Shown: positions 3,468-46,746 of the stretch, one piece after another
Position numbering within the stretch: the first letter of the stretch is position 1
Layout of the letters: the number at the start of each line of letters is the position of its first letter
From: Candidatus Aminicenantes bacterium
Lineage (GTDB): Bacteria > Acidobacteriota > Aminicenantia > Aminicenantales > UBA4085
Length of the DNA: 64,000 nt
Direction of reading: 5' to 3'
Assembly: GCA_022866045.1 (NCBI GenBank)
Contig: JALHTW010000049.1
Coordinates: forward strand, 11,041-75,040
Program-made: the position numbers and the translations under genes
The notes under the pieces: model-generated
The model's input: only the letters and a program-made list of their open reading frames with translations
Told to the model about the DNA's origin: nothing
Databases searched by the model: none

Positions 3468-3469
3468 AG

Positions 3470-9296: not shown

Positions 9297-9305
9297 GATC
9301 GACCC

Positions 9306-31257: not shown

Positions 31258-31519
31258 TTCGTCCTCCTCTTCAAAAGCGATCCTTAAGGAATTGATAAGG
31301 AATTACTTTTCTGCTGCGCTGGCTGAATGAGCATTCATGCGCCAATTTTGCCTCATCCCATAGTCAGGGATGATAAATCGCAGCGTGATCGGATGTCAAG
31401 TTGAGTAAAACCCAATTTTTCGGTTGATAATTCAGAAACAATGCAATTAAATCGTCAAGCCTTCTTTAAGGACGCCAAAACCAACTTGACTTTTTATCTC
31501 TAATTTTCCTTGACACGAA

Positions 31520-31643: not shown

Positions 31644-31952
31644 ATGTCAAAGTACGAAGCGCCAATCCTTGTCCCCTTAGGGGAGATCGCCAAAGGGTCT
31701 GGAGTCTGTTCAGTTGGAACTGCAGTTGTCGGCGGCAACTGGGGCGGAATCGGTACCTGTACTGTGGGTGCTTGTTTTGATGCCCTCTTTCCTGGAATAA
31801 CTGATTGTACGGCGGGTCCTAATGCAACACAGGATTGCTCGGCGGGTCCTACAGCAAATCGGGATTGCACGGCCGGCACTTGCGCACTCAGGGATTGCAC
31901 GGGCGGTACTGCTGCAACAGATGTGACTTGCTCGGCAGGCGGGGCTGTATAG
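31644..31952 (+). CDS. Cys/Gly-rich repetitive RiPP-like precursor peptide (102 aa, 9 Cys)
   Basis: Strong SD sequence; first gene of an operon with PqqD-like and rSAM/SPASM genes. C-terminal half consists of D-C-(T/S)-A-G-x-x-A-x-x decapeptide repeats. Confidence 0.6.
   Translation: MSKYEAPILVPLGEIAKGSGVCSVGTAVVGGNWGGIGTCTVGACFDALFPGITDCTAGPNATQDCSAGPTANRDCTAGTCALRDCTGGTAATDVTCSAGGAV
31797..31946 (+). repeat. 30-nt in-frame tandem repeats (4 full + 1 partial) inside the precursor ORF
   Basis: gattgtacggcgggtcctaatgcaacacag / gattgctcggcgggtcctacagcaaatcgg / gattgcacggccggcacttgcgcactcagg / gattgcacgggcggtactgctgcaacagat / gtgacttgctcggcaggcggggctgta. Confidence 0.85.
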
Positions 31953-32186: not shown

Positions 32187-32474
32187 ATGAATCAAACGGA
32201 CAGACCGATTGCCAATCCCATCGTTGTGCTCCGGGAGGAATTCGATGACTGGGCCGTACTCTTCAATCCCGATACGGCCGAAGCCGTGGGAACCAATCCC
32301 GTCGGTGTAGCGGTATGGAAACGGATGGACGGCAAGAGGAGCATCGAGGATATAGCGGCGGAGATCAAAAACAGCTTTGAAGACGCTCCGGACGCCGCCT
32401 TCAAAGAGATCGCCGCCTTCGTTAACAGGCTTGCTGAAAACGGTTTTGTGGGGCTGGAACTGGAGAGCAAATAG
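32187..32474 (+). CDS. PqqD-family peptide chaperone (RiPP recognition element)
   Basis: 95 aa with W-x-x-(L/M)DG-x-R-(S/T)-x-x-(D/E)-I core (VWKRMDGKRSIEDIAAEI) and C-terminal FVNRLAENGFV. GGAGG RBS. Confidence 0.75.
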   Translation: MNQTDRPIANPIVVLREEFDDWAVLFNPDTAEAVGTNPVGVAVWKRMDGKRSIEDIAAEIKNSFEDAPDAAFKEIAAFVNRLAENGFVGLELESK

Positions 32475-32477
32475 CGG

Positions 32478-33608
32478 ATGCCCGAGGAACTCAAGGACAA
32501 GACAGAACCAACGGTGTCAAAGGTTATGCGTACCCCGCGCAGCCTGATCATTGAAATCACCTCCCGCTGCAATCTGCGCTGCCGCTACTGCTACTTCTTC
32601 AACAACCCGGCGATGGTTTACCGGGATCTGCCTGCCAACGAATGGCTCACCTTCTTCGACGAACTGGGGTCGCTCGGCGTGATGAAAGTCACCCTGGCAG
32701 GCGGAGAGCCGTTTATCCGGGAGGACCTGCCCGTACTCCTTGAGGGTATTGTCCGCAACCGGATGCGCTTCTCTTTCCTGTCCAATGGCGGGCTGATCAA
32801 CGATGAAATCGCCGCTTTCATGGCCGGCACAGGCCGCTGTGAGTATGTTCAGGTGTCGGTGGATGGTTCGTGCGCAGAGGTCCACGACTCCTGTCGCGGG
32901 CAAGGCTCTTTTGACGGTGCGATACGCGGCATTCGCACCCTGCAGCGCCATCGGATTAGGGTGGCAGTGCGGGTCACGATTCATCGGAACAACGTGCATG
33001 ATTTGGAGAACATCGCTCACTTTCTTCTGGATGAGCTGGGCCTGCCGGATTTCGGCACTAACTCTGCAGGATACATGGGCACGTGCTGCGGGAACGCGGA
33101 TGATGTGCTGCTGAACATAGAGGAACGGAAGGAGGCCATGGCGACCTTGCTGCGCCTCACGGCGAAATACGATGGACGCATCTCGTCAAACGCCGGCCCA
33201 TTGACGGATGGGCGCATGTGGCGCCGGATGGAGGAGGCACGGGCACAGGGCAAGCCGGCCTTTCACAACGGTGGCCGCCTCACCGCGTGCGGCTGTCCGA
33301 ACAACAAGATCTCCGTGCGCGCCGATGGCGCAATCGTTCCCTGCAATATGTTAGCCCATGTCGAATTAGGGCGCATCAACCATGATTCTCTGGCAGAAAT
33401 ATGGCAAAACAGCCCGGCTCTGAACCAACTCCGCAACCGACATTCGATCCCGTTGACCGGGTTTGAGTTCTGCGCCGGTTGTTCATACATCCCTTATTGC
33501 ACAGGCAACTGTCCGGGATTGGGCTACACGTTAACAGGTATGGTTGACCATCCCAGTCCGGATGCTTGTTTGCGCCGCTTTCTCGAGGAAGGTGGGGCCA
33601 TCGCATGA
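32478..33608 (+). CDS. radical SAM / SPASM-domain peptide-modifying enzyme
   Basis: CNLRCRYCYF (CxxxCxxC) near the N-terminus, GGEP motif, and a C-terminal Cys-rich SPASM region (CGCPNN...PCN...CAGCSYIPYCTGNCPG). Confidence 0.85.
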   Translation: MPEELKDKTEPTVSKVMRTPRSLIIEITSRCNLRCRYCYFFNNPAMVYRDLPANEWLTFFDELGSLGVMKVTLAGGEPFIREDLPVLLEGIVRNRMRFSFLSNGGLINDEIAAFMAGTGRCEYVQVSVDGSCAEVHDSCRGQGSFDGAIRGIRTLQRHRIRVAVRVTIHRNNVHDLENIAHFLLDELGLPDFGTNSAGYMGTCCGNADDVLLNIEERKEAMATLLRLTAKYDGRISSNAGPLTDGRMWRRMEEARAQGKPAFHNGGRLTACGCPNNKISVRADGAIVPCNMLAHVELGRINHDSLAEIWQNSPALNQLRNRHSIPLTGFEFCAGCSYIPYCTGNCPGLGYTLTGMVDHPSPDACLRRFLEEGGAIA

Positions 33609-34765
33609 GCATTTTGAGCGATATGAAACAGCGGAAGACGGGACAGGCTGGAATGCGGACGATCAACACTTTGTATTTCTACTTGACCGAAGGGTGTAAC
33701 CTCGCCTGCCGCCATTGTTGGATGGGTCCCCGGTTCGACGCCACAGGCAACCATTATCCCACCCTGCCGGTTGAGTTGTTCGAGACGGCCATCCGTGAAG
33801 CCAAGCCTCTGGGGCTGAGTGGTGTCAAACTTACCGGCGGCGAGCCGTTGTTGCATCCCCACTTCACTCGTTTGCTGGAGATTGTCCGGCGTGAAGAGTT
33901 GAAGCTGACGATCGAGACCAACGGCCTGCTGTGCACGCCGGAGATCGCCGCTGAGATCGCCAAATCTCCCAACCGATTCGTATCCGTAAGTATCGACGGA
34001 ACTGATGCAGCGACCCACGAATGGGTGCGCGGTGTACCGGGAGCCTTTGAAGCGGCCCGCCAGGCGGTGCGCAGCCTTGTGGCCGCCGGCACCAGGCCGC
34101 AGATCATTTTCACGGTGATGCGCAGCAATGCCGGCCAGGTGGACGCCATGGTCCGAATGGCCGAAGAACAGGGTGCGGCCTCACTCAAGTTCAACGTGGT
34201 GCAGCCCACGGCACGAGGCGAGAAGTTGCATGAAAACCAGGAGACCCTGAACATCGGCGACCTCATCGAGTTGGGGCGGCACGTGGAACAGGAACTGGCG
34301 CCTAAGACCAAGTTGAAGATCTTCTTTCATTACCCACACGCTTTTAGAGCCCTCCATCGCATCGCCAGCGGGGATGGGTGCAGCGCCTGCGGGATCTTCG
34401 GCATCCTGGGCGTCATCGCCAGCGGACACTATGCCCTGTGCGGGATCGGCGAGCAGGTGCCGGATCTGATCTTTGGCGCGGTAGGGAAAGCCAGGCTGGA
34501 AGAGGTATGGCGAGAAAACGCCATCTTGAAGGCTCTCCGGGAGGGACTGCCCGAGCGACTGGAAGGGGTCTGCGGTCGGTGCCTGATGAAAGGGCGCTGC
34601 CTGGGCGCGTGCATTGCCCAGAACTACTACAGCAAGGGCAGCCTGTGGGCGCCATACTGGTTCTGTGAACAGGCGGAAGAAGCGGGTCTCTTTCCAACGT
34701 CACGTCTGGGAACAAGACCTACACAGTCTCCACTTATCACTATCGGCAATGCCGCTTCAGAATAG
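33605..34765 (+). CDS. radical SAM / SPASM-domain peptide-modifying enzyme (second copy)
   Basis: CNLACRHCWM, GGEPLLHP, and SPASM cysteines (CSACGIF...CG...CGRCLMKGRCLGACIA). ATGA overlap with the upstream rSAM. Confidence 0.85.
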   Translation: MSILSDMKQRKTGQAGMRTINTLYFYLTEGCNLACRHCWMGPRFDATGNHYPTLPVELFETAIREAKPLGLSGVKLTGGEPLLHPHFTRLLEIVRREELKLTIETNGLLCTPEIAAEIAKSPNRFVSVSIDGTDAATHEWVRGVPGAFEAARQAVRSLVAAGTRPQIIFTVMRSNAGQVDAMVRMAEEQGAASLKFNVVQPTARGEKLHENQETLNIGDLIELGRHVEQELAPKTKLKIFFHYPHAFRALHRIASGDGCSACGIFGILGVIASGHYALCGIGEQVPDLIFGAVGKARLEEVWRENAILKALREGLPERLEGVCGRCLMKGRCLGACIAQNYYSKGSLWAPYWFCEQAEEAGLFPTSRLGTRPTQSPLITIGNAASE

Positions 34766-36311
34766 TAACGGGAATGTCCCGGGGGCCATGTTCTTCGCTG
34801 CTTATGTCGGCCCGAGCATGAATCCGACTCTGCGCGAGCCGGAGATCATGGAGATCCTGCCTTATGACAAGAGGCCCTTGCGCGTTGGCGATGTGGCCTT
34901 TTTTCTGCCACCGGAGGCTGATCAGCCGGTCGTACACCGCATTATACGTGTGACCCCCGCAGGTATATCCACACTCGGTGACAACAACACCCAAGAGGAT
35001 ACTCTTCTCTTGCAGCCAAAGAGCATTAAAGGCCGGGTGGTGGCCGCCTGGCGTGGTCAAAAGCGGCGGAAGATCGCGGGCGGGTACCAGGGCCGGTTGA
35101 TAGGCCGCTGGCTTCATTGGCGACGCGTCCTTGACCGTGGCGTGTCTCCTCTGCTGCACCCCCTTTATCAAGCCCTATCTCACTGGGGATTGATCGCCTG
35201 GGTGTTGCCTGCTCCATTCCGGCCGCGAGTCGTCGTTTTCCAGGCCCAAGGTCGGGATCAGTTTCAGCTTCTGCTGGGACAGCGTATCATTGGGCGATAT
35301 GATGACCACAGGCATCAATGGCAGATCCAACGACCCTTTCACTTGTTTGTGGATGGAAGGGCGCTTCCAAGTAAACAGGATAGGGACCGAGTGAACCGGA
35401 AAGTTTTGACTGAACGGCGACGAACCATGAACCATCTACTGACGCAGGGAGTGCGGCATGACCTCGTCCTGGCTGATGGGAGTCATTGGGAAATTGCCGC
35501 CGAGGACAAGGAGGCCGCATCCATCGTTTCACAACTGGGATGCGCGATGCAGTTGCGCATGACACCAGGCGCAATCGAACCTTCTCATCACGGCAATCTG
35601 TGCCGACTGCTCGTCCAGGTTGACGCACAGACGTCCGTGGCGGATTGCTATGTCCCGTTGGCATCAGAAAATGACGGCGTCGTGGTCTGCATTCTAAGTC
35701 CATGCGATCACTGGGGCGGCCCGTTCGTCAATCTTATGAGATTATCGCTCGTCTTTGCTCGCGAAGCGCAGGCCCATGGAGGAGTCCTCATACACGGTGC
35801 GCTCTCTGAACGGGACGGCAGCGGTGTGATCCTGGCTGCGCCGGGCGGGGCGGGAAAGACCACGGCCAGCAATCGGCTTCCGGCCCCGTGGCGCTCGCTG
35901 TGCGACGATACCACGCTGGTGGTGCGGGACCCGCAAGGCAACTACTGGGCGCACCCCTGGCCCACCTGGAGCCGTTTCCTGGACGGGGGACCGGGCGGTA
36001 CGTGGGACGTGCAGAGCGCTGTGCCTCTCAAGGGCATCTTCTTCCTGGCCCAGGCGGTTGAAGATCGGGTGGAACGGGTAGGCCCCGGGCATGCGGTCAG
36101 CCTGCTCGGGGAGTGCGTAGGACAGGCCTCAATGTTCATGCCACTGGGCCTATTAAAAGAAGAACTCCGCGCCCTGCATCTGGAACGGTTCAATAACCTT
36201 TGCGCCTTGGCCCGGGTCGTACCCGCACACTTGCTTTACATCAGCCTGACCGGTACCTTCTGGCAAGAGATCGAGCAGGCGCTTGAGGGAGGACATTGTG
36301 AAGACACGTGA
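34749..36311 (+). CDS. fusion protein: N-terminal S26/S24-type (signal-peptidase-I-like) peptidase domain + C-terminal HprK-related P-loop kinase-like domain
   Basis: N-terminus VGPSMNPTLREPEIMEILPY...VGDVAFF...VVHRIIRV (SPase I box B GxSMxPTL). C-terminus GGVLIHGALSERDGSGVILAAPGGAGKTTASNRL resembles the HprK C-domain Walker A. Start at ATG 34749 is inferred. Confidence 0.55.
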   Translation: MPLQNSNGNVPGAMFFAAYVGPSMNPTLREPEIMEILPYDKRPLRVGDVAFFLPPEADQPVVHRIIRVTPAGISTLGDNNTQEDTLLLQPKSIKGRVVAAWRGQKRRKIAGGYQGRLIGRWLHWRRVLDRGVSPLLHPLYQALSHWGLIAWVLPAPFRPRVVVFQAQGRDQFQLLLGQRIIGRYDDHRHQWQIQRPFHLFVDGRALPSKQDRDRVNRKVLTERRRTMNHLLTQGVRHDLVLADGSHWEIAAEDKEAASIVSQLGCAMQLRMTPGAIEPSHHGNLCRLLVQVDAQTSVADCYVPLASENDGVVVCILSPCDHWGGPFVNLMRLSLVFAREAQAHGGVLIHGALSERDGSGVILAAPGGAGKTTASNRLPAPWRSLCDDTTLVVRDPQGNYWAHPWPTWSRFLDGGPGGTWDVQSAVPLKGIFFLAQAVEDRVERVGPGHAVSLLGECVGQASMFMPLGLLKEELRALHLERFNNLCALARVVPAHLLYISLTGTFWQEIEQALEGGHCEDT

Positions 36312-36393: not shown

Positions 36394-38214
36394 ATGCAAG
36401 AGCAGGCTGAATCGATAAAACTGAAAATACAACGCGCCCTACAGCTTGGTCGCGCCGTGCGTTTTGTCTGGCAGAGCGCGAAAAGCTGGACAATAGCGAA
36501 CGGGGCTCTCATTGTGGTCCAAGGAATATTGCCGTTACTCCCGCTGTATCTCATGAAGCTCATGGTGGACGCCGTGACCGCGGGGCTGGCGGCTCCTGAC
36601 AAAGGGGCCGCTCTTAGACACGTGCTGTTGCTTGTTGGCTTTATGGGGGCAGCAACCCTGTTTGCCTTCTTGATCCGCCTGATAGCGGGACTGGTTAGCG
36701 AATGGCAGGGTTACATTGTCACGGATCACATGAACGACGTCCTCCTTGCCAAGTCCATTGAGGTAGATCTGGAGTATTACGAGAGTGCGCGATACTACGA
36801 CACCCTTCATCGCGCCCAACGCGAAGCCCCTTATCGCCCTATGAATATCGTTAATGGTTTGGCCCAGATTGGTCAGAACGGAATCTCGCTGCTGGCAATA
36901 GCAGGACTGCTCGTGTCATTTCATTGGCTCATCGCGGCAATCCTATTCACTGCCGTTATTTCCGGGACCGCAGTGCGATTAAGATATACCCGCAAGATGT
37001 ATCGCTGGCAACGTGAGCAGACATCCACGGAACGGCAAGCCGGCTACCTCAATTGGATTCTCACCGACAGCAGCCACGCCAAGGAAATCCGCCTGTTTGA
37101 CCTTGGACCTCTGTTCATGCGCCGGTTTCGCGATATCCGCCGGAAACTCCGCAAGGGAAGGCTGGCCATCACGCGCAGGCGTTATATCGCTGATTTTGCG
37201 GCTCAGACCTTTGCCACCGCGGCCATCTACGGTTCGTATGCTTATGTTGCTTCTCAGGCGGTGTGGGGGAAGATCACGTATGGTGATCTGGTGATGTATT
37301 ATCAGGCATTTCAGCGCGTCCAGGGATTTCTTCAGGGGATATTGGGCAGTCTGGCAGGACTGTATGCAGACAACCTGTTCCTTTCAAATCTCTACGAGTT
37401 TCTTGATCTGAAACGTACAGTCATCGAACCGGCTCATGCCAGCCCTGTGCCTCAGCCGATGCAACGCGGCATCGTGCTGGACCATGTGAGTTTTCAGTAT
37501 CCCACAGGCACCAGAAAGGTTTTTGAGGATATTTCCCTCACCATCCGGCCGGGAGAAGTGGTGGCTTTGGTGGGTGAGAATGGCTCGGGTAAGACGACTT
37601 TGATCAAGTTGTTGTGTCGATTGTACGATCCGACAGGTGGGACCATTACCATCGACGGGGTAGATCTGCGCCAGTTTGAAACAAAAGCGTTAAGACACGA
37701 AATCGCTATCATTTTTCAGGACTATGCCCACTACCATCTGACGGCCCGAGAGAACATCTGGTTTGGGAATACCGCCCTTCCGCCCGACCATGAACGTGTC
37801 ATCGCCGCTGCGCGCCGCTCGGGGGCTGACGACGTCATCAGCGCGTTGCCTCATGGCTATGATACGATTCTGGGAAAGTGGTTCGAGGACGGGGAGGAAC
37901 TAAGCATTGGCGAGTGGCAGAAAGTGGCCCTGGCCCGCGCCTTCATGCGCGATGCACAGATCATCGTCCTTGACGAACCGACAAGCTCTATGGACGCCAA
38001 GGCGGAATATGAGGTCTTCAAGAGTTTTCGCCAACTGGTGTCCGGTCGAACAGCCATCCTGATCAGTCATCGCTTTTCCACCGTCCGGATGGCCGACCGC
38101 ATTTATGTGCTGAAGCATGGAAGCATCATCGAAGGTGGCACCCACGAAGAGCTCCTTCGCGTGGGAGGAACCTATGCCCGGTTGTTCGAAATGCAAGCCC
38201 AGCATTACCGGTGA
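36394..38214 (+). CDS. ABC exporter, fused permease + ATPase (type I exporter, no peptidase domain)
   Basis: Six N-terminal TM helices. Walker A GENGSGKTTL, signature LSIGEWQKVALARA, Walker B IIVLDEPTSSMD. Confidence 0.9.
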   Translation: MQEQAESIKLKIQRALQLGRAVRFVWQSAKSWTIANGALIVVQGILPLLPLYLMKLMVDAVTAGLAAPDKGAALRHVLLLVGFMGAATLFAFLIRLIAGLVSEWQGYIVTDHMNDVLLAKSIEVDLEYYESARYYDTLHRAQREAPYRPMNIVNGLAQIGQNGISLLAIAGLLVSFHWLIAAILFTAVISGTAVRLRYTRKMYRWQREQTSTERQAGYLNWILTDSSHAKEIRLFDLGPLFMRRFRDIRRKLRKGRLAITRRRYIADFAAQTFATAAIYGSYAYVASQAVWGKITYGDLVMYYQAFQRVQGFLQGILGSLAGLYADNLFLSNLYEFLDLKRTVIEPAHASPVPQPMQRGIVLDHVSFQYPTGTRKVFEDISLTIRPGEVVALVGENGSGKTTLIKLLCRLYDPTGGTITIDGVDLRQFETKALRHEIAIIFQDYAHYHLTARENIWFGNTALPPDHERVIAAARRSGADDVISALPHGYDTILGKWFEDGEELSIGEWQKVALARAFMRDAQIIVLDEPTSSMDAKAEYEVFKSFRQLVSGRTAILISHRFSTVRMADRIYVLKHGSIIEGGTHEELLRVGGTYARLFEMQAQHYR

Positions 38215-38245
38215 AGGCTTGATGATCTCGGAGGCGTAAAAAAGT

Positions 38246-39526
38246 ATGCCAGATTTTTTTAAGGAACGCAGCGTGACCATGGATAAGCGGTATACCGGAG
38301 ACGGCAAAAATACTTTGAAGCGCATTCTTGACTTATCGTGGCGAATTTCTGTCTATGCGCCTCCAATGAAGCCATTTATCCGCTTCTCGAAGCACGCAGA
38401 TACACTATACAAGGGAAAAACAAACAGCTACAAACATTTCTTCTGGGATTTCGACGACGCTTTGCAGAGGGTTCTTTTAGGCATGGCCCGTACCATAGCA
38501 ACACCCTCGGAGATTGCTGAAGCGTGCATCGAACGATGGAAAATTAACCTTGAGAAGTTCTACCAAAGAAGGAAGAGACAATTGGAAGAGTTGCGAAAAA
38601 ATGGCGAGGTTCCCCAATTTCGATACACGCCGCGCAACGAGTTTATCTTCTCACGGGTTGAGCCTGGCAGCCGCTTGCTTTATGTAGGATGTGGCACTGG
38701 AACAGAATGCCTCGGCTTGGCGCAGAGAGGCTATGAGGTTATCGGAATTGATACGGACGAACAACTGATTGAGATTGCAAATGAGTGGGCGGAATATCTT
38801 AAGCTTCCTTTTCAGGCAGTTTGCATGGATGCTGACAACATCGGTTTTTCGCCAGGATCTTTTGATGGCTTTTTATTGGAATTTTATGGATTTCAGTCTT
38901 CCCTGGTTCAGGCGTTGGCTCTTCAAAGAGGCCTCGCAAGTGTACTGAATGACAATGGAAAAGGGTTTATCTCAGCACCCCGCAAAAAATATGCCTCTCT
39001 CTGGTACAGGATGCCGAATCTTGGGTATCCAGAATCCATGTTTCATTGGCTGACAAGCCAATGCCGATTGGACCACTACTTTTCACAGATGGATGCGTGT
39101 GAAGAGAAGCTCGCTTTTGGACTGTATATCCGGAGCCATACTGTAGACTCTCTGTCTCGCGAATTGGGTGGCGTTTTCGATGTGCAAGAATGTATGTATG
39201 AAAAATATGATCCGCGCTATCTGATAAGTGTGGTCAAAAGAAAGGGCCGTTTTTCGGATTCATCCCCGACCTCAGAGAATGACGATACCGAGGATTGGAC
39301 AAAGCAGGAATATCTGCAAAGGGAGGGGGTGTCCATTGAAGATGTCTTGTACGAGATTCACGCTATTTGCGATCTACTTGAATTACAGAAGGAGAGAGTC
39401 GAGCGGTTTTTCCTCAATGGTGATGTTTCTGGGGGAAAAAGCCCTCTATCCATGGTGGATACGGATCTTCCAAGGTTTATCGAGCTTCTCGAGCATACCT
39501 ACGGAATGCGGCCCTTCCGCTCTTAG
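38246..39526 (+). CDS. class I SAM-dependent methyltransferase with N-terminal accessory domain
   Basis: LLYVGCGTGTECLGLAQRGYEVIGIDTDEQLIEIA (motif I plus acidic loop). Lower GC than the rSAM genes. Confidence 0.65.
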   Translation: MPDFFKERSVTMDKRYTGDGKNTLKRILDLSWRISVYAPPMKPFIRFSKHADTLYKGKTNSYKHFFWDFDDALQRVLLGMARTIATPSEIAEACIERWKINLEKFYQRRKRQLEELRKNGEVPQFRYTPRNEFIFSRVEPGSRLLYVGCGTGTECLGLAQRGYEVIGIDTDEQLIEIANEWAEYLKLPFQAVCMDADNIGFSPGSFDGFLLEFYGFQSSLVQALALQRGLASVLNDNGKGFISAPRKKYASLWYRMPNLGYPESMFHWLTSQCRLDHYFSQMDACEEKLAFGLYIRSHTVDSLSRELGGVFDVQECMYEKYDPRYLISVVKRKGRFSDSSPTSENDDTEDWTKQEYLQREGVSIEDVLYEIHAICDLLELQKERVERFFLNGDVSGGKSPLSMVDTDLPRFIELLEHTYGMRPFRS

Positions 39527-39540
39527 GGGGGAATATAGAA

Positions 39541-39692
39541 AAAGAGTGTCACGCTTGTCGTTAGCAGCCAAACGTCGCCAAATAGGTGTCAACCTGTTTT
39601 CCGCTGTATCTCGTGAAGTTCATGGTGGACGCCGTGACCGCCAGGGTGTTTACGCTGACCTCTTTGAGAAGCAAGCCCGGTCCTATCGTTAG
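39541..39692 (+). pseudogene. collapsed remnant of a second ABC exporter paralog (5' fragment joined out of frame to last 16 codons)
   Basis: 39601-39643 is ~95% identical to 36541-36582 of the ABC gene. 39644-39692 encodes GVYADLFEKQARSYR*, versus GGTYARLFEMQAQHYR* at the ABC C-terminus. Confidence 0.6.
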
Positions 39693-39715
39693 CCGCAAGA
39701 ACTGGAGGACTTATC

Positions 39716-40963
39716 ATGGAACAAAGAGAAGCGGGCAGACTTTTATGCGATTTTCTTTCAGGTAGAAAAATACCAGAAGCCAGGCTCGAAAAATTATCGC
39801 CGGCTGATGGGGAGAGTCTGGCAGACTTGGCGCTGCGTTTTAAAGTGGGGGGGTTGTTCTATCGGGAAATAAAGTCCCGTAACATTCCGACTGAGCTTAT
39901 CCCGGTTGATGTCAGAAACAGACTCAGGGACGCCTACCGCAACCTGGCCACTGTGAACACGAGTCTTTTTCTTGATGCCTCAAAAGTTCTTAAGTCTCTG
40001 GCCGACAATCAACTGCCGGTCATTGCGCTCAAAGGTCTTTCGCTGGCAAAAAATATCTATGGTGATATCGCTTTAAGACCAATGTCCGATATGGATCTTT
40101 TAGTGAAAGAAGAAGATCTGGTCAGGGCCGGCCGGATACTGCTGGCTCTTGGCTATAAGCCGCATTTTTCTGCTTGGGAGAGCATGTTGAAGACTCGCCG
40201 TCATTTGCCGCCTTTTACGAATAAAAGCGGGGCGATGATAGAACTTCACTGGAATATTGTGACTCCGGATAGCCCCATTGAAGTAGATCTTGACGGGTTG
40301 TGGGAGAGAGCGTGTCTTATCAAAGTGGATAATGTCGAGGTCCGGGCTTTTTCTCCGGAGGATTTATTTTTACATTTGTGTATCCATGCTGGTCATCATC
40401 TGCAGACCGGAATAGACTTGATTCCTTTCTGTGATATGGCCGGATTGATAAAAACATCCGGAGATAAAATCGACTGGCAAATAGTCATTGAGAGGGCCAC
40501 CCGGTGGGGCGGCCAAAAGTGTGTTTACCTGATGTTGCTTCTGGTCCGGGAATTGCTGGGAGCGGCGCCGCCGGATAAAATTATGTCAGAAATAAAACCC
40601 GATGATTACCGGTCTGTTTTTTTTGATGAAGCCCTGGAACAGATTTTTGATGTAAGCCCGGCAGGTCAGCTGTTTAGAATAAGAATCGGCAAACTTTCAA
40701 AAATAAAAAAAGTTAAAGGGATTAGAGGTAAAGTTTTGGCTCTTTTAAAAGGAGTTTTTCCGTCAAGGGAGAATCTGGCCCGCATCTATCCGGTGTCGGT
40801 TTCTTCCCCGAAGATATATCTGTGTTATTTATTTCGCCTGGGCCGCATGATTGTCTACTATACGATTGTGCTTCTTCGGTTATTCCGCCGTGATCAATCG
40901 GTTATAAAAGCGGTCCATCAGGAGCATCGGGTGAGCGCGGTTTCCGACTGGATGTTTTCATAA
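39716..40963 (+). CDS. nucleotidyltransferase-family protein (PF14907-like, HPr-rel-A-system-type NTase)
   Basis: Pol-beta-like motif GDIALRPMSDMDLLVKEED (hG..x9-13 DxD). About 415 aa. Sits in a neighbourhood with PqqD-like and HprK-like genes. Confidence 0.5.
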   Translation: MEQREAGRLLCDFLSGRKIPEARLEKLSPADGESLADLALRFKVGGLFYREIKSRNIPTELIPVDVRNRLRDAYRNLATVNTSLFLDASKVLKSLADNQLPVIALKGLSLAKNIYGDIALRPMSDMDLLVKEEDLVRAGRILLALGYKPHFSAWESMLKTRRHLPPFTNKSGAMIELHWNIVTPDSPIEVDLDGLWERACLIKVDNVEVRAFSPEDLFLHLCIHAGHHLQTGIDLIPFCDMAGLIKTSGDKIDWQIVIERATRWGGQKCVYLMLLLVRELLGAAPPDKIMSEIKPDDYRSVFFDEALEQIFDVSPAGQLFRIRIGKLSKIKKVKGIRGKVLALLKGVFPSRENLARIYPVSVSSPKIYLCYLFRLGRMIVYYTIVLLRLFRRDQSVIKAVHQEHRVSAVSDWMFS

Positions 40964-41147: not shown

Positions 41148-42287
41148 TTAAGCTGCGATTTTCTTTTTATTTTTTTTGAGATATTCCAAGAAAAACGTGA
41201 GGAACCCAAAGATGGTCAAACCAATCAGGCCGGCGATTAACACATTCATTTTTTTCTTTGGCGCTACTGGACCTGGAGATGGCGTTGGTTCTTTTATGAG
41301 CTGGGCATAGTCGATTCTCGTTTTTCGTTCGATCAGGAGCTCGATCTGTTTTTTGAAGTTTTCCGTAGAGTTGCTGATCTTAGCGGCAGCATTTTTGTAC
41401 TTTTCAATCTGGGCGTCGATTTCCTTAAGATTTTCAGTTTTTATTTTAATCTCTAACTTCAGGGACTCTTGAAGGTTTTTTTCCACGCTCAAATTTCCGT
41501 CGAGTGTACCGTAATACTGGAGGTTGCTCTGGACATAGCTCATATATAAAAGCAGGCCGATGGATTCTCCCGTTTCGCGTTGTTCCGCCAAGGTTTTTTT
41601 TAGCTGTTCCTCTAAGGCTTCCATTCTTTTTTTGACGGATCCCATTTCTTCAGAAATGTTTTTGGCACGCTCTTCGGAAATATTTATTCTATTTTCATCC
41701 GTCGATATTTCCTGCCTGGTTTTCGTCTTTTGAATGTCCAAGAGCTTGATTTCATTGTAGTTATCTTTGATTATCAACTCATTTTGTTTGATGGCATTTT
41801 CGTTTGAGGCGATCTGCGTATCGAGACCCTTGATTTGCACGTCGAGTTTTCTGTCCAGCTCATTTTTGAGATGTCGGAAAAGAGAATTTAATATCTTAAT
41901 TCCTCGGTCGATATTGGAGTCCCTTATCCAAAACCTCACAAGCTTTGTGTCCTTGAGGTTCTCCGCTTTAATGGCGGATAATGTTCTGGGGTCGAGATTT
42001 AATTCCGCGGCGATAAGGTCACTGTAGGCATGCTGATTGATTTGGCCGGCGATCTGTCTTGGGTCAACGACGAGGACCTCTAAAAATTGGACATTCTCAG
42101 CCTGAACGTAAAATTTACTGGGCTGGATGATGGCGTCGACTTCCCAGACAGGAGTTATAAAAAAGCTGACGATCCCCGCTGTAACCGCAATAATAAGCGT
42201 TGGGACGATGATCATCCATTTTCTTCTCCAAAGGACTTCCAAATATTCCATGAGATTGATTTCTTCATTATGCTCGGTCTCGTTCAT
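41148..42287 (-). CDS. wzz: Wzz / polysaccharide co-polymerase chain-length determinant
   Basis: N-terminal EINLMEYLEVLWRRKWMIIVPTLIIAVTAGIVSFF TM helix, long coiled-coil periplasmic region, C-terminal TM helix. AT-rich. Confidence 0.7.
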   Translation of the reverse strand: MNETEHNEEINLMEYLEVLWRRKWMIIVPTLIIAVTAGIVSFFITPVWEVDAIIQPSKFYVQAENVQFLEVLVVDPRQIAGQINQHAYSDLIAAELNLDPRTLSAIKAENLKDTKLVRFWIRDSNIDRGIKILNSLFRHLKNELDRKLDVQIKGLDTQIASNENAIKQNELIIKDNYNEIKLLDIQKTKTRQEISTDENRINISEERAKNISEEMGSVKKRMEALEEQLKKTLAEQRETGESIGLLLYMSYVQSNLQYYGTLDGNLSVEKNLQESLKLEIKIKTENLKEIDAQIEKYKNAAAKISNSTENFKKQIELLIERKTRIDYAQLIKEPTPSPGPVAPKKKMNVLIAGLIGLTIFGFLTFFLEYLKKNKKKIAA

Positions 42288-43419: not shown

Positions 43420-44409
43420 TTACCCTTTGTCGTTTTCCCGCTCGAGCGCCTTCAATAATTCCTCGGGCGAGCAGACGGCTGTGCCGATCTTTCCCACAAC
43501 GACGCCCGCAGCGGCGTTGGCCATGGCCGCCGCCTCTTGGATCGTCGCGCCCGCCAGCAGCCCCAGCGCCGCCGTCGCGATCACGGTATCGCCCGCGCCC
43601 GTGACATCGAAAACCTCCCGGGCGATGGTCGGAATGTGGACGGGCTTTTTTCCCTTCTCGAAGATGGACATGCCCTGTTCGCCGCGCTTGATGATCAAGT
43701 AGCGGCTCGCCGCCAGGGCCAGGATCTCCCGCCCCGCGCGCTCGATGTCCGCGTCCGAATGGCAGGCGTGATGGACAATCCGCTCGGCTTCTTGATGGTT
43801 GGGAGAGAGGAAGGTTACGGGAGAATAGAGCGCGAAATTCTCCACCTTGGGGTCGACAAACACCGGGATCTTCCGCTTTAAGGCGAAAGGCAGCACGCGT
43901 TCCATCAGCGTCCGCGTCACGATGCCCTTGTTGTAATCCGAGATGACGATCCCTTCGTATTTTTCTTTCTCGATGAAACCGGCGATCTTCTCTTCGATCT
44001 CGGACGCGACGGGCTTCTTTTTCTCCTGGTCTACCCGGACGACCTGCTGGTGTTGGGCGATGATGCGCATTTTGACCGTCGTCGGCCGTTCCGCGTCGAT
44101 GAATATTCCGCGGCTTTCGCCAACGTAGCGCTTGATCCAGGCTCCTTCCTCGTCATCGCCCACGACGCCCACGAGGATCGGCGACGCGCCCAGGGACCCG
44201 AGGTTTTGGCTGACGTTGCCGGAGCCGCCAAGGCAGGAGGTGCTCTTGCGGACCTCCACGACGGGCACCGGCGCTTCGGGCGAAATGCGGGAGACGTCGC
44301 CCCAGATATACCGGTCGAGCATCACGTCGCCGAGGACGAGCACCCGCCGGCCTTTGAATTTCCTGATGAGACGTTGAGTTTTTTGGATATTCAAAGAAAG
44401 CGCGGTCAT
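43420..44409 (-). CDS. hldE: D-glycero-beta-D-manno-heptose 7-phosphate kinase (HldE/RfaE domain I, PfkB family)
   Basis: RVLVLGDVMLDRYIWGDVSRISPEAPVPVVEV is the canonical RfaE domain I N-terminus. C-terminal GAGDT motif. ATGA overlap with the upstream PHP gene. Confidence 0.8.
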   Translation of the reverse strand: MTALSLNIQKTQRLIRKFKGRRVLVLGDVMLDRYIWGDVSRISPEAPVPVVEVRKSTSCLGGSGNVSQNLGSLGASPILVGVVGDDEEGAWIKRYVGESRGIFIDAERPTTVKMRIIAQHQQVVRVDQEKKKPVASEIEEKIAGFIEKEKYEGIVISDYNKGIVTRTLMERVLPFALKRKIPVFVDPKVENFALYSPVTFLSPNHQEAERIVHHACHSDADIERAGREILALAASRYLIIKRGEQGMSIFEKGKKPVHIPTIAREVFDVTGAGDTVIATAALGLLAGATIQEAAAMANAAAGVVVGKIGTAVCSPEELLKALERENDKG

Positions 44410-45518
44410 CGGTTTTCCCTTCCAAAATAGATCGGATTGGACAAGATCCACGGAACGCCGGGGGCGAGGGGCGTCCGCTCACGGAGATAGACTTCGGCGC
44501 GATAGACGCCGGGTCCGCTGAGAGGGAGCGTCACTTCGTTATCGCGCGTCTGGTGAATCATTTTGCCGTCATGAATGATAACTATTTCGTGGGCGAATGA
44601 AAAGGGCGCGATGGCGCGAAGCGAGCCGGCCTCGAGCCAGAAGCGGAAGCCGCGCGCGTCAGCGGCCGCGTCCACCGCGCTGTAAAAGCTACCGCGGCGG
44701 AGCGCATCGAAGACCTGCCGCCGGGCCGTCTCAAAATCCGCGGACCGCGGTTTGTCGAGCAGGACGTGCAGATGAAAGACCGGAAAGATGGCGCCGTAGA
44801 GCAGGTGGGCATCGGCGCTGAAAAAGCCGAGGGCCGGCCGCCGGCTCAACAGCTGGTCCCACTTGCGCAGAGCCTGCTCCGGCGGGTCGATCATCTTCAG
44901 CAGGGCGAATCCCGGCTTGATGAGAAGCGCGGGAAGATAGGACAGGGTGCGGACCGGATGGCGTTTCAGCATGGTGTCCGCGTCGATGATCTCAATGCCG
45001 GCGTATTCGAAGAGATCGCCCCACGACCAGCGGACTTTGGAATAGGGGTGGGCGATGATCGCGAAGCCGCCGAGGGCCGCGATCTCCCGGACAGCGACTT
45101 CGGCGTCCCGGGAGAATGCCGTGGAGTCTTTGGGGCGGTCGAATCCTAGGGCGACCAGATGTCCGCGGTTCGTGGAGAGCTCGGAGCCGGCCAGAACGAG
45201 CAGGCCATGGTTCCATCCCTGGGCGTCGAGCGTCGCGTAGTTCGGCTTGCCGTGATCGGCGAGGATGATGAAGTCCAGCCCGGCGCCGGCGGCCGTTTCG
45301 GCGATCTTGTCCACGGTCTTCCAGCCGTCCGAATAGCGCGAATGGATGTGATAGACGCCCGAGAATTCGTAAAGAGGAGGAACGGGCAAGGCTGCCTGCG
45401 CTGTTGTTGAGATGGGGGATTCGTATCGCTTGAATCGAGCGATCTGCCAGCCCAGCCAGAGGACATAAAGTCCAAATGCGGCCAGGACAGTGCGCCCGAG
45501 GATCTTTTTAATTCTCAT
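44406..45518 (-). CDS. PHP-domain metal-dependent phosphoesterase with N-terminal membrane anchor
   Basis: GVYHIHSRYSDGWKTVDKIAETAAGAGLDFIILADHG is the PHP His/Asp motif cluster. Confidence 0.55.
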   Translation of the reverse strand: MRIKKILGRTVLAAFGLYVLWLGWQIARFKRYESPISTTAQAALPVPPLYEFSGVYHIHSRYSDGWKTVDKIAETAAGAGLDFIILADHGKPNYATLDAQGWNHGLLVLAGSELSTNRGHLVALGFDRPKDSTAFSRDAEVAVREIAALGGFAIIAHPYSKVRWSWGDLFEYAGIEIIDADTMLKRHPVRTLSYLPALLIKPGFALLKMIDPPEQALRKWDQLLSRRPALGFFSADAHLLYGAIFPVFHLHVLLDKPRSADFETARRQVFDALRRGSFYSAVDAAADARGFRFWLEAGSLRAIAPFSFAHEIVIIHDGKMIHQTRDNEVTLPLSGPGVYRAEVYLRERTPLAPGVPWILSNPIYFGRENR

Positions 45519-45537
45519 TTATTGTCCCTGAAGGATT

Positions 45538-46746
45538 TCATTGCGAGGCGTTTTGCGCCGCGGCCGCCTCGCCATTTTTAAGCCGCTCCAAGGCGAACGG
45601 AATGGTGATGATGAACAATAAAAGCGTTGAGACCTCTGAATCGCCGAAGTTATACTCGAAAAATCCGGCGGCGATGAAAGCCGCCAGCGCCGCGAGCGCG
45701 CCGGCCGCCGGAGCCAAAAGCCCCTTCGCCCTTTTCTTCACCAGCCTGGCCAACGAGACAAATACCGTCACAACAAAAGTCAGCCAGGCGAGAAGGGTCG
45801 CGATCCCCCGTTCGGCCGCGATCTGAATGATGTTATTGTGGAGATGGACGTTCCGCTTATAACTCTCCTCGAGGCCGTACTTCGGGTTTTGAAAGACCAT
45901 GTCCACGGTGTCGGGGCCTGTCCCGAGCCAAGGAAAATCTTTGATGATCTTGATCCCGGCATGGATATATTCGACACGGGCCATGTTGGAGAATTCGCGG
46001 AAGCTGAAAATGCTCAGGGCCCGGTCTTTGACCGGTTTCGGGCTGACGAAGAAGATGAGCCCGGCAAGGACGGGAACGAGGATGAGCGTTTTCGGCTTCC
46101 AGAGGAGAAGGCTGACGCACAGGGCCACGGCCAGGCCGATCCATCCGCTCCGCGTCAGCGTCAGGATCAGGGCGATCGAGGAGAGGACGAGCCCGGAGGC
46201 CCAGAGAAGCCGCTGGCGGCCCCGGCCCAAGAAAATAAATCCCATGGCGACCGCCCCGAACAGGATAAGGAGCCCGGCCTGGGTCATGTAATGGCCCATG
46301 AATCCCTTGACCCGCTGGCCAGGATCGGCCTTAAAAATAAAATAGGCGATGGAATAGGCGGCGTTGATGAAACCCGAGCCGAGAAGGGCGACGAACAAAA
46401 GTTCGATATCATCCCTGCACGTAAAGGCGGTGAAGACGATGAGGATGAGGACATAGAGAAGGAGCTCCCGCGAATCCTTGAAGCTCATTTCCGTGTTCAC
46501 CGAATAGATCGAGGAAACGAGGGACAGCCAGGCGTAGACGAGGAGAGGCCAGAAGAACGAGGGAAAAGCGAGCCGGCGCTTTTTCTGGAGGAGAAGAAGG
46601 AGCCAGGATAAGAGAGCGAGGGTCAAAAAGATCTGGACGATTGAGATCGAGATCTGGGAGAACAGAAGACAGATTGCGAGGGAGAAAAGAAGCGAGATTT
46701 CCCAAGGGGTCTTGCCGGTCGTGAGTTTATGGAAATAATCTCTCAT
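45538..46746 (-). CDS. O-antigen ligase-like (Wzy_C / WaaL-like) polytopic membrane protein
   Basis: About 10-12 TM helices with a periplasmic loop. LPS core context. Confidence 0.45.
   Translation of the reverse strand: MRDYFHKLTTGKTPWEISLLFSLAICLLFSQISISIVQIFLTLALLSWLLLLLQKKRRLAFPSFFWPLLVYAWLSLVSSIYSVNTEMSFKDSRELLLYVLILIVFTAFTCRDDIELLFVALLGSGFINAAYSIAYFIFKADPGQRVKGFMGHYMTQAGLLILFGAVAMGFIFLGRGRQRLLWASGLVLSSIALILTLTRSGWIGLAVALCVSLLLWKPKTLILVPVLAGLIFFVSPKPVKDRALSIFSFREFSNMARVEYIHAGIKIIKDFPWLGTGPDTVDMVFQNPKYGLEESYKRNVHLHNNIIQIAAERGIATLLAWLTFVVTVFVSLARLVKKRAKGLLAPAAGALAALAAFIAAGFFEYNFGDSEVSTLLLFIITIPFALERLKNGEAAAAQNASQ

Follow-up and report, generated by a model that had tools for sequence, protein, structure and literature searches.

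The question raised by this locus is how a methyltransferase (MT) gene and a nucleotidyltransferase (NTase) gene came to follow the radical SAM and ABC exporter genes of a peptide-maturation cluster, and whether the two constitute a single tailoring module appended to the core at a later time, as an earlier note on this DNA had proposed. The window, i.e., the whole stretch of 64,000 nucleotides that was analyzed, belongs to an Aminicenantes metagenome-assembled genome (MAG), and the loci with which it was compared are designated here by L numbers. Our analysis makes it fairly likely that 31.6–41.0 kb of the window constitutes one extended SCM-type peptide-maturation operon, in which the NTase is resident and the MT was recombined in from a second SCM sub-lineage, and for which we infer the tailoring steps.

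Identity and layout of the cassette

The markers ScmC, ScmD, ScmE, and ScmF were found contiguously on the + strand at 32187–36311, and because all four models exceed their curated cutoffs, profile comparison identifies this cluster of the Aminicenantes MAG as a SynChlorMet (SCM) cassette. The core features are as follows:

31644–31952, + strand: candidate precursor peptide, 102 aa; its leader is conserved (KYE[AS]P.L.PLGE.AKGSG), and motifs of the DC[TS]AG type recur through its core
32187–32474, + strand: ScmD, PqqD-family peptide chaperone (TIGR04248, 108.5 bits vs a cutoff of 100; PF05402, E 5.8e-15)
32478–33608, + strand: ScmE, radical SAM/SPASM maturase (TIGR04250, 559.7 bits vs a cutoff of 400)
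33566–34765, + strand: ScmF, second radical SAM/SPASM maturase (TIGR04251, 531.4 bits vs a cutoff of 400)
34614–36311, + strand: fusion of an N-terminal S26 signal peptidase-like domain with a C-terminal ScmC domain, the latter carrying an HprK-like P-loop, APGGAGKTT

Within the fusion protein, the ScmC part (residues 374–557) scores 187.4 bits against the TIGR04249 cutoff of 125, and the peptidase part (residues 64–142) matches Signal peptidase I with an E-value of 4.7e-9. A match to HprK_rel_A (TIGR04352) is weak, at 26.4 bits vs a cutoff of 200, and is confined to the P-loop stretch (residues 385–436). The candidate precursor yielded zero Pfam or NCBIfam matches; of the 88 loci compared, 18 have homologous open reading frames (ORFs) on the upstream side of their PqqD gene. 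A promoter/terminator scan of the operon gave no signal above shuffled sequence, and an Rfam scan of the region upstream of the precursor matched nothing.

NCBIfam models returned no match whatever for the NTase, and the MT matched only unrelated methyltransferase models, weakly and below their cutoffs; neither enzyme thus belongs to the cassette as the SCM models define it, and the membership of both rests on a neighborhood conserved across loci rather than on dedicated family models. By that conservation, the placement of MT and NTase in a peptide-maturation cluster as plausible tailoring enzymes, as first proposed, is supported. SCM cassettes are common in anaerobic sediment and peat bacteria. 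Literature searches on SynChlorMet, ScmC, ScmE, and ScmF returned unrelated matches only, two radical SAM RiPP reviews omit the cassette, and the product or chemistry of any SCM cassette was not found in the literature searched.

A resident nucleotidyltransferase

Downstream of the fusion gene, the following features were delineated, the MT and NTase ORFs both being intact:

36394–38150, + strand: 5′ portion of the ABC exporter gene (ABC_tran and ABC_membrane domains), orthologous to that of MT-less cassettes
38151–38214, + strand: substitute 21-codon ABC 3′ end, tail B (...GGTYARLFEMQAQHYR*), the left end of the insert
38246–39526, + strand: MT, class I SAM-dependent methyltransferase, 426 aa (Pfam Methyltransf_25, 47.2 bits vs a cutoff of 27; Methyltransf_11)
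39527–39600, no strand assigned: non-coding, right-hand part of the insert, 3′ of the MT, its first 45–51 nt common to L010, L092, and L093
39601–39641, + strand: stray 41-nt copy of ABC codons 50–63, matching the window ABC gene (36541–36581) at 39/41 positions
39637–39692, + strand: displaced original ABC 3′ end, tail A remnant (...GVYADLFEKQARSYR*), between MT and NTase
39693–39715, + strand: original ABC-NTase spacer, 23 nt, with the ribosome-binding site GGAGGA; same spacing in L001, L002, and L003
39716–40963, + strand: PF14907 NTase, 415 aa, a catalytic core with D125 and D127 followed by a C-terminal helical domain

The assignment of the last of these to PF14907 (NTP_transf_5), made in the earlier note together with a Pol-beta-type motif, was confirmed by a full-profile match (profile positions 2–249 of 249, residues 29–282, E 1.8e-59, 201.8 bits vs 31.2) and by the presence of the motif YGDIALRPMSDMDLLV. 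Residues G107, D125, D127, and H178 are invariant in type-1 and type-2 homologues, and E176 is invariant or nearly so. A PDB sequence search with the NTase profile gave only chance matches to glutathione S-transferases and was uninformative, so fold comparison was used instead; the nucleotidyltransferase fold was found, with neighbors that include ANT(2'') (4xje) and that align over the generic catalytic core only (145–192 of 415 residues).

The gene order PqqD, ScmE, ScmF, ScmC, ABC, NTase, with MT absent, recurs in L001–L004, L009, L012, L014, and L016–L018, where the ABC-NTase spacer measures 23 nt (L001–L003, L009, and L012) or 16–390 nt (L004, L014, and L016–L018). NTase identity drops in step with that of the core genes (88% in L001, 77% in L003, and 67% in L004), and the NTase and the 23-nt spacer ahead of it have orthologues of 92–93% nucleotide identity in MT-less L001, L009, and L018. 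Judged by these comparisons, the NTase is a conserved resident of the cassette lineage and always follows immediately on the ABC exporter gene.

The methyltransferase and a recombination scar in the exporter gene

The MT has a helical domain of ~120 aa at its N-terminus, a helical extension at its C-terminus, and a VGCGTG motif, in which G148 is invariant and G150 and G152, like D169, are at least 90% conserved among 42 homologues. Its AF2 model (pLDDT 85) has a Rossmann-like fold, with PH0226, TehB-like proteins, and CypM retrieved by Foldseek at a probability of 1.00. Homologues recur in SCM-type clusters: the MT shares 93–96% nucleotide identity with L005, L092, L093, and L095, and distant homologues (39–43% identity) lie in clusters with ScmC, radical SAM, S26, ABC, and PF14907 genes in differing orders, MT and PF14907 genes occurring together in distant clusters L090, L091, L113, L124, and L125. 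A search for precursor features separating MT-bearing from MT-less cassettes found none.

According to the earlier note, an ABC-gene remnant separated these two genes from the core. That gene (36394–38214) proved to be intact, encoding a complete 606-aa exporter equal in length to its orthologues, and the real remnant lies at 39601–39692, between MT and NTase. The MT insert spans 1.49 kb (38151–39636) and lies within the terminal 64 nt of the ABC gene. Compared with L001, the 5′ portion of the exporter gene is 88–98% identical per 60-nt bin (95% across the first 1740 nt), whereas the tail region falls to an ungapped identity of 51–61% per 60-nt bin, and blastn found no match between tail B and L001. 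The tail B region (38134–38214) is instead 96–99% identical to L005, L092, L093, and L095 (96% for L005). The incoming segment supplies a replacement ABC tail, which keeps the exporter intact. On the far side of the insert, the stray ABC copy, which translates as PLYLVKFMVDAVTA against PLYLMKLMVDAVTA in the ABC protein, is joined to the old tail via the microhomology ACCGCC; the tail A remnant is no longer translated within any gene, and together with the spacer (39637–39715) it is 94–95% identical to the intact ABC 3′ ends and spacers of L001, L009, and L018.

An independent MAG, L010, shares this hybrid structure, although its remnant is shorter and it has an 87-nt deletion of its own; elsewhere, the remnant is longer in L005 and absent from L007 and L008. 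The ABC tail type follows the NTase lineage. Its use as a marker of MT presence was ruled out by the MT-less tail-B cassettes L052, L035, L022, and L068. A large ABC duplication through Campbell-type integration was considered as the source of the remnant and set aside; insertion at 38150 of a segment bringing its own ABC tail would cover everything except the 41-nt fragment. The origin of this fragment is not accounted for by simple insertion. With its position in the 38151–39636 insert, the substitute ABC tail ahead of it and displaced tail A behind it, the MT, an optional accessory gene of the cassette, was demonstrably inserted later, and for this gene the later acquisition suggested at the outset holds.

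Base composition

The lower GC content of the two genes was borne out, at 46.7% for MT and 46.3% for NTase vs 54.5–59.5% for ScmD/E/F/C and the ABC gene, as was a difference in GC3 (0.50 and 0.48 vs 0.62–0.71 in the core). Relative to 51 long ORFs of the window (mean 0.642, SD 0.105), the GC3 z-scores are −1.3 for MT, −1.6 for NTase, and −0.2 to +0.65 for the core. The description of a low-GC module is accurate for both genes but not limited to them, since the low-GC block begins at 38.2 kb, extends beyond the cluster to ~43.2 kb, and takes in a divergent Wzz-like gene (41.8% GC) and a 180-aa ORF (48.3% GC).

Reading this composition as a sign of later acquisition did not withstand comparison with other genomes: of 19 related cassettes, 18 show the GC3 deficit in their NTase, and each of the four other MT-bearing loci that were compared shows it in the MT, in hosts that range from 44 to 69% GC. 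Because the deficit recurs in this way, low GC3 is no evidence of recent acquisition in the window; lower GC is an inherited property of MT and NTase wherever the cassette occurs, not a mark of recent arrival. The deficit of type-1 NTases is 0.12–0.24, with lower values in L004 and L016, whose hosts are GC-rich, while that of type-2 NTases is mostly 0.01–0.07 (five MT-less cassettes) and reaches 0.13 in L005. Given the larger deficit in type-1 NTases, the NTase may have entered the cassette lineage anciently from a lower-GC source.

Genomic neighborhood of PF14907 genes

The co-occurrence of PF14907 genes with HprK-like and PqqD-like genes in other genomes, which the earlier note had stated, was corroborated by a neighborhood analysis. 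Among 59 species genomes with enough flanking sequence, HprK/ScmC-like genes were found near the PF14907 gene in 43, PqqD genes in 39, ABC genes in 39, and lasso B2 genes in 12; these counts, like those of the gene neighbors in the related SCM cassettes and around the distant MT homologues, derive from phmmer searches with a few queries and describe the best-matching 80 loci, which are not a random sample. The calls in L023, L031, and L038 were confirmed by NCBIfam and Pfam. In L031 and L023, an HprK-related kinase gene, an S26 peptidase gene, and a PqqD gene stand beside the NTase gene; L031 is without a radical SAM gene, and L023 has only a weak radical-SAM-like match on the opposite strand. 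In L038, the PF14907 gene, whose product is a full-length homologue of the window NTase (32% identity over 395 aa), follows lasso B1/B2 genes near a sulfotransferase gene and a kinase-like gene.

In the lasso peptide pseudomycoidin, PsmK (HPr-kinase-like) and PsmN (a nucleotidyltransferase) form a tailoring pair (PMC6993621; review PMC8498205). PsmN is required for the addition of a hexose to phosphorylated pseudomycoidin, its in vitro activity not having been demonstrated, and ANT(2'') 4xje, also a neighbor of the window NTase, is given as its structural neighbor (PMC6993621). By analogy, the occurrence of PF14907 genes beside HprK/ScmC-like, PqqD, and ABC genes and in lasso clusters resembles this kinase/NTase pair. 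In the window, the NTase half of such a pairing is clear, and the kinase-like domain is seen only via ScmC and the weak HprK_rel_A P-loop match.

Weighing of alternative explanations

Two readings concern the history of the locus. That MT and NTase are a single lower-GC module, acquired together and appended after the core, is consistent with their shared low GC3, their adjacency at the 3′ end of the operon, the co-occurrence of MT with PF14907 genes in the five distant clusters named above, and the larger GC3 deficit of type-1 than of most type-2 NTases, which could reflect an ancient joining from a lower-GC source; nevertheless, we consider it quite unlikely. The NTase, spacer, and old ABC tail are 92–95% identical to those of loci that lack the MT (L001, L009, and L018), whereas the MT (93–96%) and new ABC tail match L005, L092, and L093, cassettes of a different NTase lineage whose NTase is only 31% identical to that of the window. 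Moreover, the ABC remnant sits between the two genes, the MT is missing from most of the close relatives that carry the NTase, and MT-less relatives keep the same ABC-NTase junction. Because NTase and MT thus match different sets of loci, one appended module is not supported, and sequence comparison points to separate histories, contrary to the joint acquisition proposed earlier. The hybrid could also be no true recombinant but a chimera, assembled from two strains that occur together, given that the window comes from a MAG and that close cassettes of both types share similar environments. We regard this as extremely unlikely, since the independent MAG L010 carries tail B, MT, a tail-A remnant, and a type-1 NTase with its own 87-nt deletion, and since the 41-nt ABC fragment and the microhomology are non-template features that would not arise in assembly.

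Other readings concern function. The NTase might serve self-protection or inactivation rather than tailoring, nucleotidylating the mature peptide or another antibiotic within the producing cell in the manner of ANT(2'')/LnuA or MenT toxins, and its gene does adjoin the exporter gene throughout. This appears unlikely: PADLOC gave no match for the NTase and an antitoxin-like partner gene is absent, PF14907 genes lie within operons of the RiPP type that also contain PqqD and kinase-like genes, PsmN, the only relative studied in a similar setting, decorates the product (PMC6993621), and the fold similarity is that of the generic catalytic core (145–192/415 residues). A defense-system reading was rejected, with no PADLOC match for NTase or ScmC and only a generic methyltransferase-domain match of the MT to mad2. 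Alternatively, both genes could be part not of the peptide cassette but of the low-GC polysaccharide locus around it, which has Wzz-like, O-antigen-ligase-like, and epimerase genes, and could act, for example, in the modification of a sugar or lipid carrier. The low-GC block at 38.2–43.2 kb does include the Wzz-like gene, L001 likewise has Wzy_C, Bac_transf, and GT4 genes at its flanks, and glycosyltransferase genes adjoin PF14907 genes in L090 and L137. Against this, homology to other cassettes stops ~100 nt past the NTase stop codon, NTase and MT are co-oriented and tightly spaced within the cassette whereas the Wzz-like gene is convergent, and linkage is conserved despite unrelated flanks that vary by locus (Mla genes in L003, ADH genes in L004, and RecO/FeoB in L007), which makes this explanation very unlikely.

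Proposed pathway and significance

For the extended SCM-type operon that we favor, the chemistry of the cassette steps is what we infer. ScmD would bind the leader of the Cys/Thr-rich precursor, after which ScmE and ScmF would install cross-links and the HprK-like ScmC domain, a putative kinase, would phosphorylate a Ser or Thr hydroxyl. The PF14907 enzyme may then add a sugar, as PsmN does to phosphorylated pseudomycoidin, or a nucleotidyl group to the phosphate or hydroxyl, and in cassettes carrying the MT, methylation would follow. Finally, the S26-like domain would cleave off the leader and the ABC protein would export the product. In terms of origin, the MT segment entered the end of the ABC gene by recombination with a second SCM sub-lineage, leaving the old tail dead before the original spacer and NTase. 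As a bolder and tentative proposal, the extended SCM cassettes might represent a new RiPP class of radical-SAM cross-linked Cys/Thr-rich peptides that are phosphorylated by ScmC, capped by PF14907 through a phosphodiester (sugar or nucleotide), and methylated in some lineages, with the ABC 3′ end acting as a recombination joint that swaps tailoring genes (two PF14907 lineages, with or without MT).

A near-constant PF14907 NTase and an optional partner from a dedicated MT family enlarge the gene set for co-expression toward a natural product, and as the window, which has the MT, and L001, which lacks it, share 93% identity elsewhere, they provide a ready-made pair for the role of the MT. The recombination scar indicates that tailoring genes move between related cassettes, the joint being the end of the ABC gene and the replacement tail being brought along. 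Tying the cassette to pseudomycoidin, the only studied kinase/NTase tailoring pair, predicts a phospho-linked decoration on a non-lasso scaffold.

Comparison with known systems

Compared with the SCM cassette defined by TIGR04248–TIGR04251, the window has all four markers, contiguous and in one orientation, but differs in the fusion of ScmC to an S26-peptidase-like domain and in the addition of an ABC exporter, a PF14907 NTase, and, in its own lineage, an inserted MT. The trio of functions of the HPr-rel-A system (TIGR04352 and TIGR04353) recurs beside PF14907 in L031 and L023. ScmD of the window gave no match to PqqD_rel_X (TIGR04353) at E ≤ 0.01, its best match being TIGR04248, and with ScmC at 26.4 vs 200 bits, the window therefore lies outside that system.

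As in the window, a single RiPP operon encodes, for pseudomycoidin, an "uncharacterised nucleotidyltransferase" together with an ABC exporter and proteins of the HprK-like P-loop and PqqD types; the likeness to PsmN runs through operon content, the L038 homologue, and a shared fold neighbor. In place of a lasso cyclase and B2 protease, the window has two radical SAM/SPASM enzymes, and lasso C or B2 models matched none of the ten cluster proteins; L038 is an example of a cluster of the lasso kind. Unlike the Ser-ending substrates of lasso kinases (paeninodin/pseudomycoidin type), the window precursor is Cys/Thr-rich and ends in ...CSAGGAV, the last residue of its relatives being V, I, Q, G, N, T, H, L, or P.

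Among individual enzymes, CypM (cypemycin, N-terminal) and LahSB (lanthipeptide, C-terminal) have a class I SAM fold and a RiPP-type cluster setting in common with the MT, the resemblance being that of a generic Rossmann core only (15–17% identity), whereas the ~120-aa N-terminal helical domain and C-terminal helices are peculiar to its own MT family. Similarly, ANT(2''), LnuA, and the MenT toxins, small-molecule or tRNA NTases of the Pol-beta superfamily, share 10–15% identity with the window NTase, which differs from them in an extra C-terminal helical domain of ~190 residues and in its genomic context.

Identity and gene content of the cassette

The cluster was recognised by NCBIfam as a SynChlorMet (SCM) cassette, with all four markers exceeding their curated cutoffs: ScmD of the PqqD family (TIGR04248, 108.5 bits, cutoff 100), the radical SAM/SPASM proteins ScmE (TIGR04250, 559.7 bits, cutoff 400) and ScmF (TIGR04251, 531.4 bits, cutoff 400), and ScmC (TIGR04249, 187.4 bits, cutoff 125). 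By these defining markers, the locus belongs to the SCM cassette family. A literature search for the SCM cassette found no paper on it, and the extended architecture (a peptidase-ScmC fusion, an ABC exporter, a PF14907 gene and an optional methyltransferase) is a new variant of a known, uncharacterised cassette.

Features of the cassette (window positions)
31644-31952, putative precursor ORF
32187-36311, core genes for ScmD, ScmE, ScmF and ScmC
36394-38214, ABC exporter gene
38246-39526, methyltransferase (MT) gene, 426 aa
39601-39641, stray copy of ABC codons 50-63
39637-39692, remnant of the original ABC tail
39716-40963, PF14907 nucleotidyltransferase (NTase) gene, 415 aa

The window's ScmC forms the C-terminal portion of a 565-aa protein whose N-terminal portion is signal peptidase I-like (E 4.7e-9). 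Its P-loop stretch matched HprK-related kinase A at 26.4 bits (cutoff 200), a weak match, and the assignment of ScmC as a putative kinase is correspondingly weak. Upstream of the core, the product of the putative precursor ORF is rich in Cys, Thr, Ala and Gly; its leader is conserved and it repeats a DC[TS]AG motif. Of the 88 loci compared, 18 have a homologue ahead of the PqqD gene. The window peptide and its homologues have in common the leader KYE[AS]P.L.PLGE.AKGSG and carry 4-6 C[TS]AG-centred repeats that vary in number and sequence, with no conservation at their C-termini.

Both tailoring ORFs are intact and lie where the earlier note had located them. The MT is a class I SAM-dependent methyltransferase (Methyltransf_25, 47.2 bits, cutoff 27) whose SAM-binding motif VGCGTG and D169 are conserved (42 homologues) and which resembles only generic class I methyltransferases, including CypM. 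The NTase is a full-length PF14907 member (E 1.8e-59, profile positions 2-249 of 249) bearing the motif YGDIALRPMSDMDLLV that had been quoted for it, in which D125 and D127 are invariant among homologues; an NTase 100% identical to it is recorded from a Candidatus Aminicenantes MAG.

Base composition of the tailoring genes

The GC difference between the tailoring genes and the core is real: the MT has 46.7% GC (GC3 0.50) and the NTase 46.3% (GC3 0.48), against 54.5-59.5% (GC3 0.62-0.71) for ScmD, ScmE, ScmF, ScmC and ABC. Measured against 51 long ORFs of the window (mean GC3 0.642, sd 0.105), the z-scores were -1.3 for the MT, -1.6 for the NTase and -0.2 to +0.65 for the core. The low-GC stretch had been thought to end at the NTase; it runs on to about 43.2 kb, taking in a 180-aa ORF as well as a convergent Wzz-like gene of 41.8% GC. 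A second, stronger low-GC block was observed at the left end of the window (325-5425), with four co-oriented ORFs of 38.5-40.7% GC (GC3 0.40-0.44, z about -2).

Taken by the earlier note as a sign of acquisition, this compositional step loses that meaning once related cassettes are compared. Of 19 related cassettes (host GC 44-69%), 18 have an NTase with GC3 below the core value, and in each of the four further MT-bearing loci compared the MT falls short by 0.12-0.17. For the window's NTase lineage (type 1) the deficit is 0.12-0.24 and smaller in high-GC hosts; for the second lineage (type 2) it is 0.01-0.07 in five MT-less cassettes, 0.09-0.13 in L008 and L005, and -0.05 in L022 (L numbers denote comparison loci from other genomes and MAGs). 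Since the same deficits recur in related cassettes, the step travels with the MT and NTase genes; it possibly reflects an ancient source of lower GC and is uninformative on any recent event in this genome.

Insertion of the methyltransferase and its scar

An ABC remnant had been placed between the core and the MT; the gene found there is a complete 606-aa exporter, and the true remnant lies between MT and NTase. The first 1740 nt of the window ABC are 95% identical to L001, an MT-less cassette, with 88-98% identity per 60-nt bin up to position 38150 (...CACGAAGA), and the gene switches type in its last 64 nt, the last 81 nt being 96% identical to L005 and 51-61% identical to L001. From 38151 onwards, nucleotide identity to L005, L092, L093 and L095 is 93-99% across the new ABC tail and spacer as well as the MT; past the MT stop, matches to the first 45-51 nt were limited to L010, L092 and L093 (80-84%). 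The stray copy of ABC codons 50-63 agrees with the window's own ABC at 39 of 41 positions and is joined through the microhomology ACCGCC to the remnant, in which 56 nt survive from the original 64-nt ABC tail of L001 type. Directly 3' of this remnant follow an unchanged 23-nt spacer and the NTase; identity to L001, L009 and L018 is 94-95% for remnant plus spacer and 92-93% for the NTase.

With the left and right boundaries thus mapped, the insert spans 38151-39636. The MT thus entered as an insertion that left a scar, and by supplying its own ABC tail the insert preserves an intact exporter gene. An assembly chimera was considered as the source of this hybrid and rejected, because the independent MAG L010 carries the same hybrid, with an additional 87-nt deletion in the remnant, and remnant deletions differ by lineage. 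In L005 an ABC remnant of 144 nt follows the MT, and L007 and L008 are compact without one; thus, the remnant decays by deletion in separate lineages.

Two sub-lineages and a probable exchange point at the ABC tail

The type of ABC tail follows the NTase lineage and not the MT. Tail A (GVYADLFE.QARSYR) pairs with the type-1 NTase, as in the window, and tail B (GGTYARLFEMQA.HYR) pairs with the type-2 PF14907 gene, 31-36% identical to type 1, a pairing also seen in the MT-less cassettes L052, L035, L022 and L068. The two PF14907 lineages fill the same slot after ABC in cassettes that are otherwise very similar (these four versus L001 and L009), and the last 21 ABC codons differ according to the lineage present. 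The cores of L052 and L001 are closely alike although their NTases belong to different lineages; the last 64 nt of ABC therefore appear to act as a joint, 3' of which cassettes exchange the tailoring end of the operon. The window, L010 and L007 are hybrids that combine tail B and the MT from sub-lineage 2 with the type-1 NTase from sub-lineage 1, and the MT and NTase do not form the joint module that had been proposed, although as separate modular tailoring genes both stand.

The nucleotidyltransferase as a resident of the cassette

More than 160 close homologues of the NTase were found, and those with enough flanking sequence show the order PqqD, ScmE, ScmF, ScmC, ABC, NTase, exemplified without an MT by L001-L004, L009, L012, L014 and L016-L018. 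ABC and NTase are separated by 23 nt in L001-L003, L009 and L012 and by 16 to 390 nt in L004, L014 and L016-L018, and NTase identity declines along with the core genes (L001 88%, L003 77%, L004 67%). Because flanks differ among the NTase-bearing loci, the cassette travels as one piece, NTase included, and the NTase is a conserved resident of it. Later acquisition, suggested for both genes, thus holds for the MT and fails for the NTase, and the earlier interpretation is partly supported overall.

Cassette proteins are 85-93% identical between the window and L001, L009, L010, L011, L015 and L018, with differing flanking genes. The MAGs concerned carry the labels Aminicenantes, Terriglobia, Thermodesulfobacteriota, Syntrophaceae, Anaerolineaceae and 'delta proteobacterium'; either whole cassettes are often transferred horizontally, or the bins and labels contain errors.

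The cassette sits among surface-polysaccharide genes (28087-30147, 30319-31257, 41148-42287 and 43420-46746), including O-antigen-ligase-like membrane proteins, an NAD-dependent epimerase, a Wzz-like chain-length determinant and a sugar-kinase-like gene; Wzy_C, Bac_transf and GT4 genes also lie downstream of the L001 cassette. Between the epimerase gene and the precursor ORF, a 110-nt segment (31294-31403) matches L001 3344-3235 at 81%, in an orientation opposite to that of the adjoining cassette homology. It contains a near-consensus promoter-like site (TTGACA-18-TATCAT, - strand), facing the epimerase gene in the window and the precursor in L001, together with a short hairpin, and is flanked by palindrome-containing repeats (31275-31290 and 31457-31472). 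Present as a single copy within the window and without a match in Rfam, this segment is possibly a shared promoter module, or else a stretch able to invert.

Neighbourhoods of the two tailoring families

MT homologues of 39-43% identity occur in clusters with other gene orders: radical SAM, ScmC, radical SAM, MT, S26 peptidase, ABC in L090, L113, L120, L124 and L125, and radical SAM, radical SAM, ScmC, ABC, PqqD, PF14907, MT in L091 (Omnitrophota). The PF14907 gene is next after ABC in L090 (behind a GT2 gene), L113, L124 and L125, and the L120 contig ends before that point. Judged by this gene context, the MT family is dedicated to such clusters. One 587-aa MT homologue, P0218, is fused to an added Peptidase_S26 domain (PF10502), a fusion that links the family to leader-peptidase function.

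The earlier note's expectation that PF14907 accompanies HprK-like and PqqD genes was borne out in 59 species genomes (flank of at least 6 kb, partners within 9 kb; best-matching phmmer loci, not a random sample), and the co-occurrence whose lack was to refute the proposal was thereby found.

Neighbours of PF14907 genes (genomes of 59)
HprK/ScmC-like, 43
PqqD, 39
ABC exporter, 39
S26 peptidase, 26
Radical SAM, 25
Lasso B2, 12

Three of these neighbourhoods were confirmed by family models. L031 (Thiomargarita, 8268-11185) and L023 (Electrothrix, 7992-11179) hold the same compact set of HprK-related kinase, S26 signal peptidase, PqqD and NTase; L038 holds a lasso cyclase, a kinase-like gene, a sulfotransferase, B1, B2 and NTase. 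A radical SAM gene is absent from L031, and L023 shows a weak radical-SAM-like match alone, on the opposite strand just downstream. Given this compact set, the window's peptidase-ScmC fusion, ScmD and NTase may work together as a unit without depending on ScmE or ScmF.

In L137 (= L013; 3175-11293), a type-1 NTase of 67% identity belongs to a different cluster, comprising PqqD, a 361-aa ORF, GT4, GT2, GT2, ABC and two tandem PF14907 genes. Pfam found no radical SAM or ScmC gene in this cluster; with phmmer, a weakly matching ScmC/HprK-like gene lay within 9 kb. These GT genes, and the GT2 adjoining the L090 NTase, hint at a sugar-related role.

Proposed function and comparison with known systems

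Among enzymes in a comparable setting, PsmN, from the lasso cluster for pseudomycoidin, is the only one to have been studied; it was described as an uncharacterised NTP transferase that has 4xje as structural neighbour (PMC6993621). PsmN is required for the 1-2 hexoses on the phosphate set by PsmK, an HPr-kinase-like enzyme that phosphorylates the C-terminal Ser of pseudomycoidin (PMC6993621; PMC8498205). By analogy with this pair, ScmC would phosphorylate a hydroxyl of the cross-linked peptide and the PF14907 enzyme would cap the phosphorylated site, while the MT, in cassettes carrying it, would add methyl groups.

Judged by their defining features, the window locus belongs to neither the HPr-rel-A system nor the lasso family, and while PsmK targets a C-terminal Ser, the window precursor ends in a different residue. 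The window NTase shares with PsmN the structural neighbour 4xje, and the locus plausibly works like the PsmK/PsmN pair.
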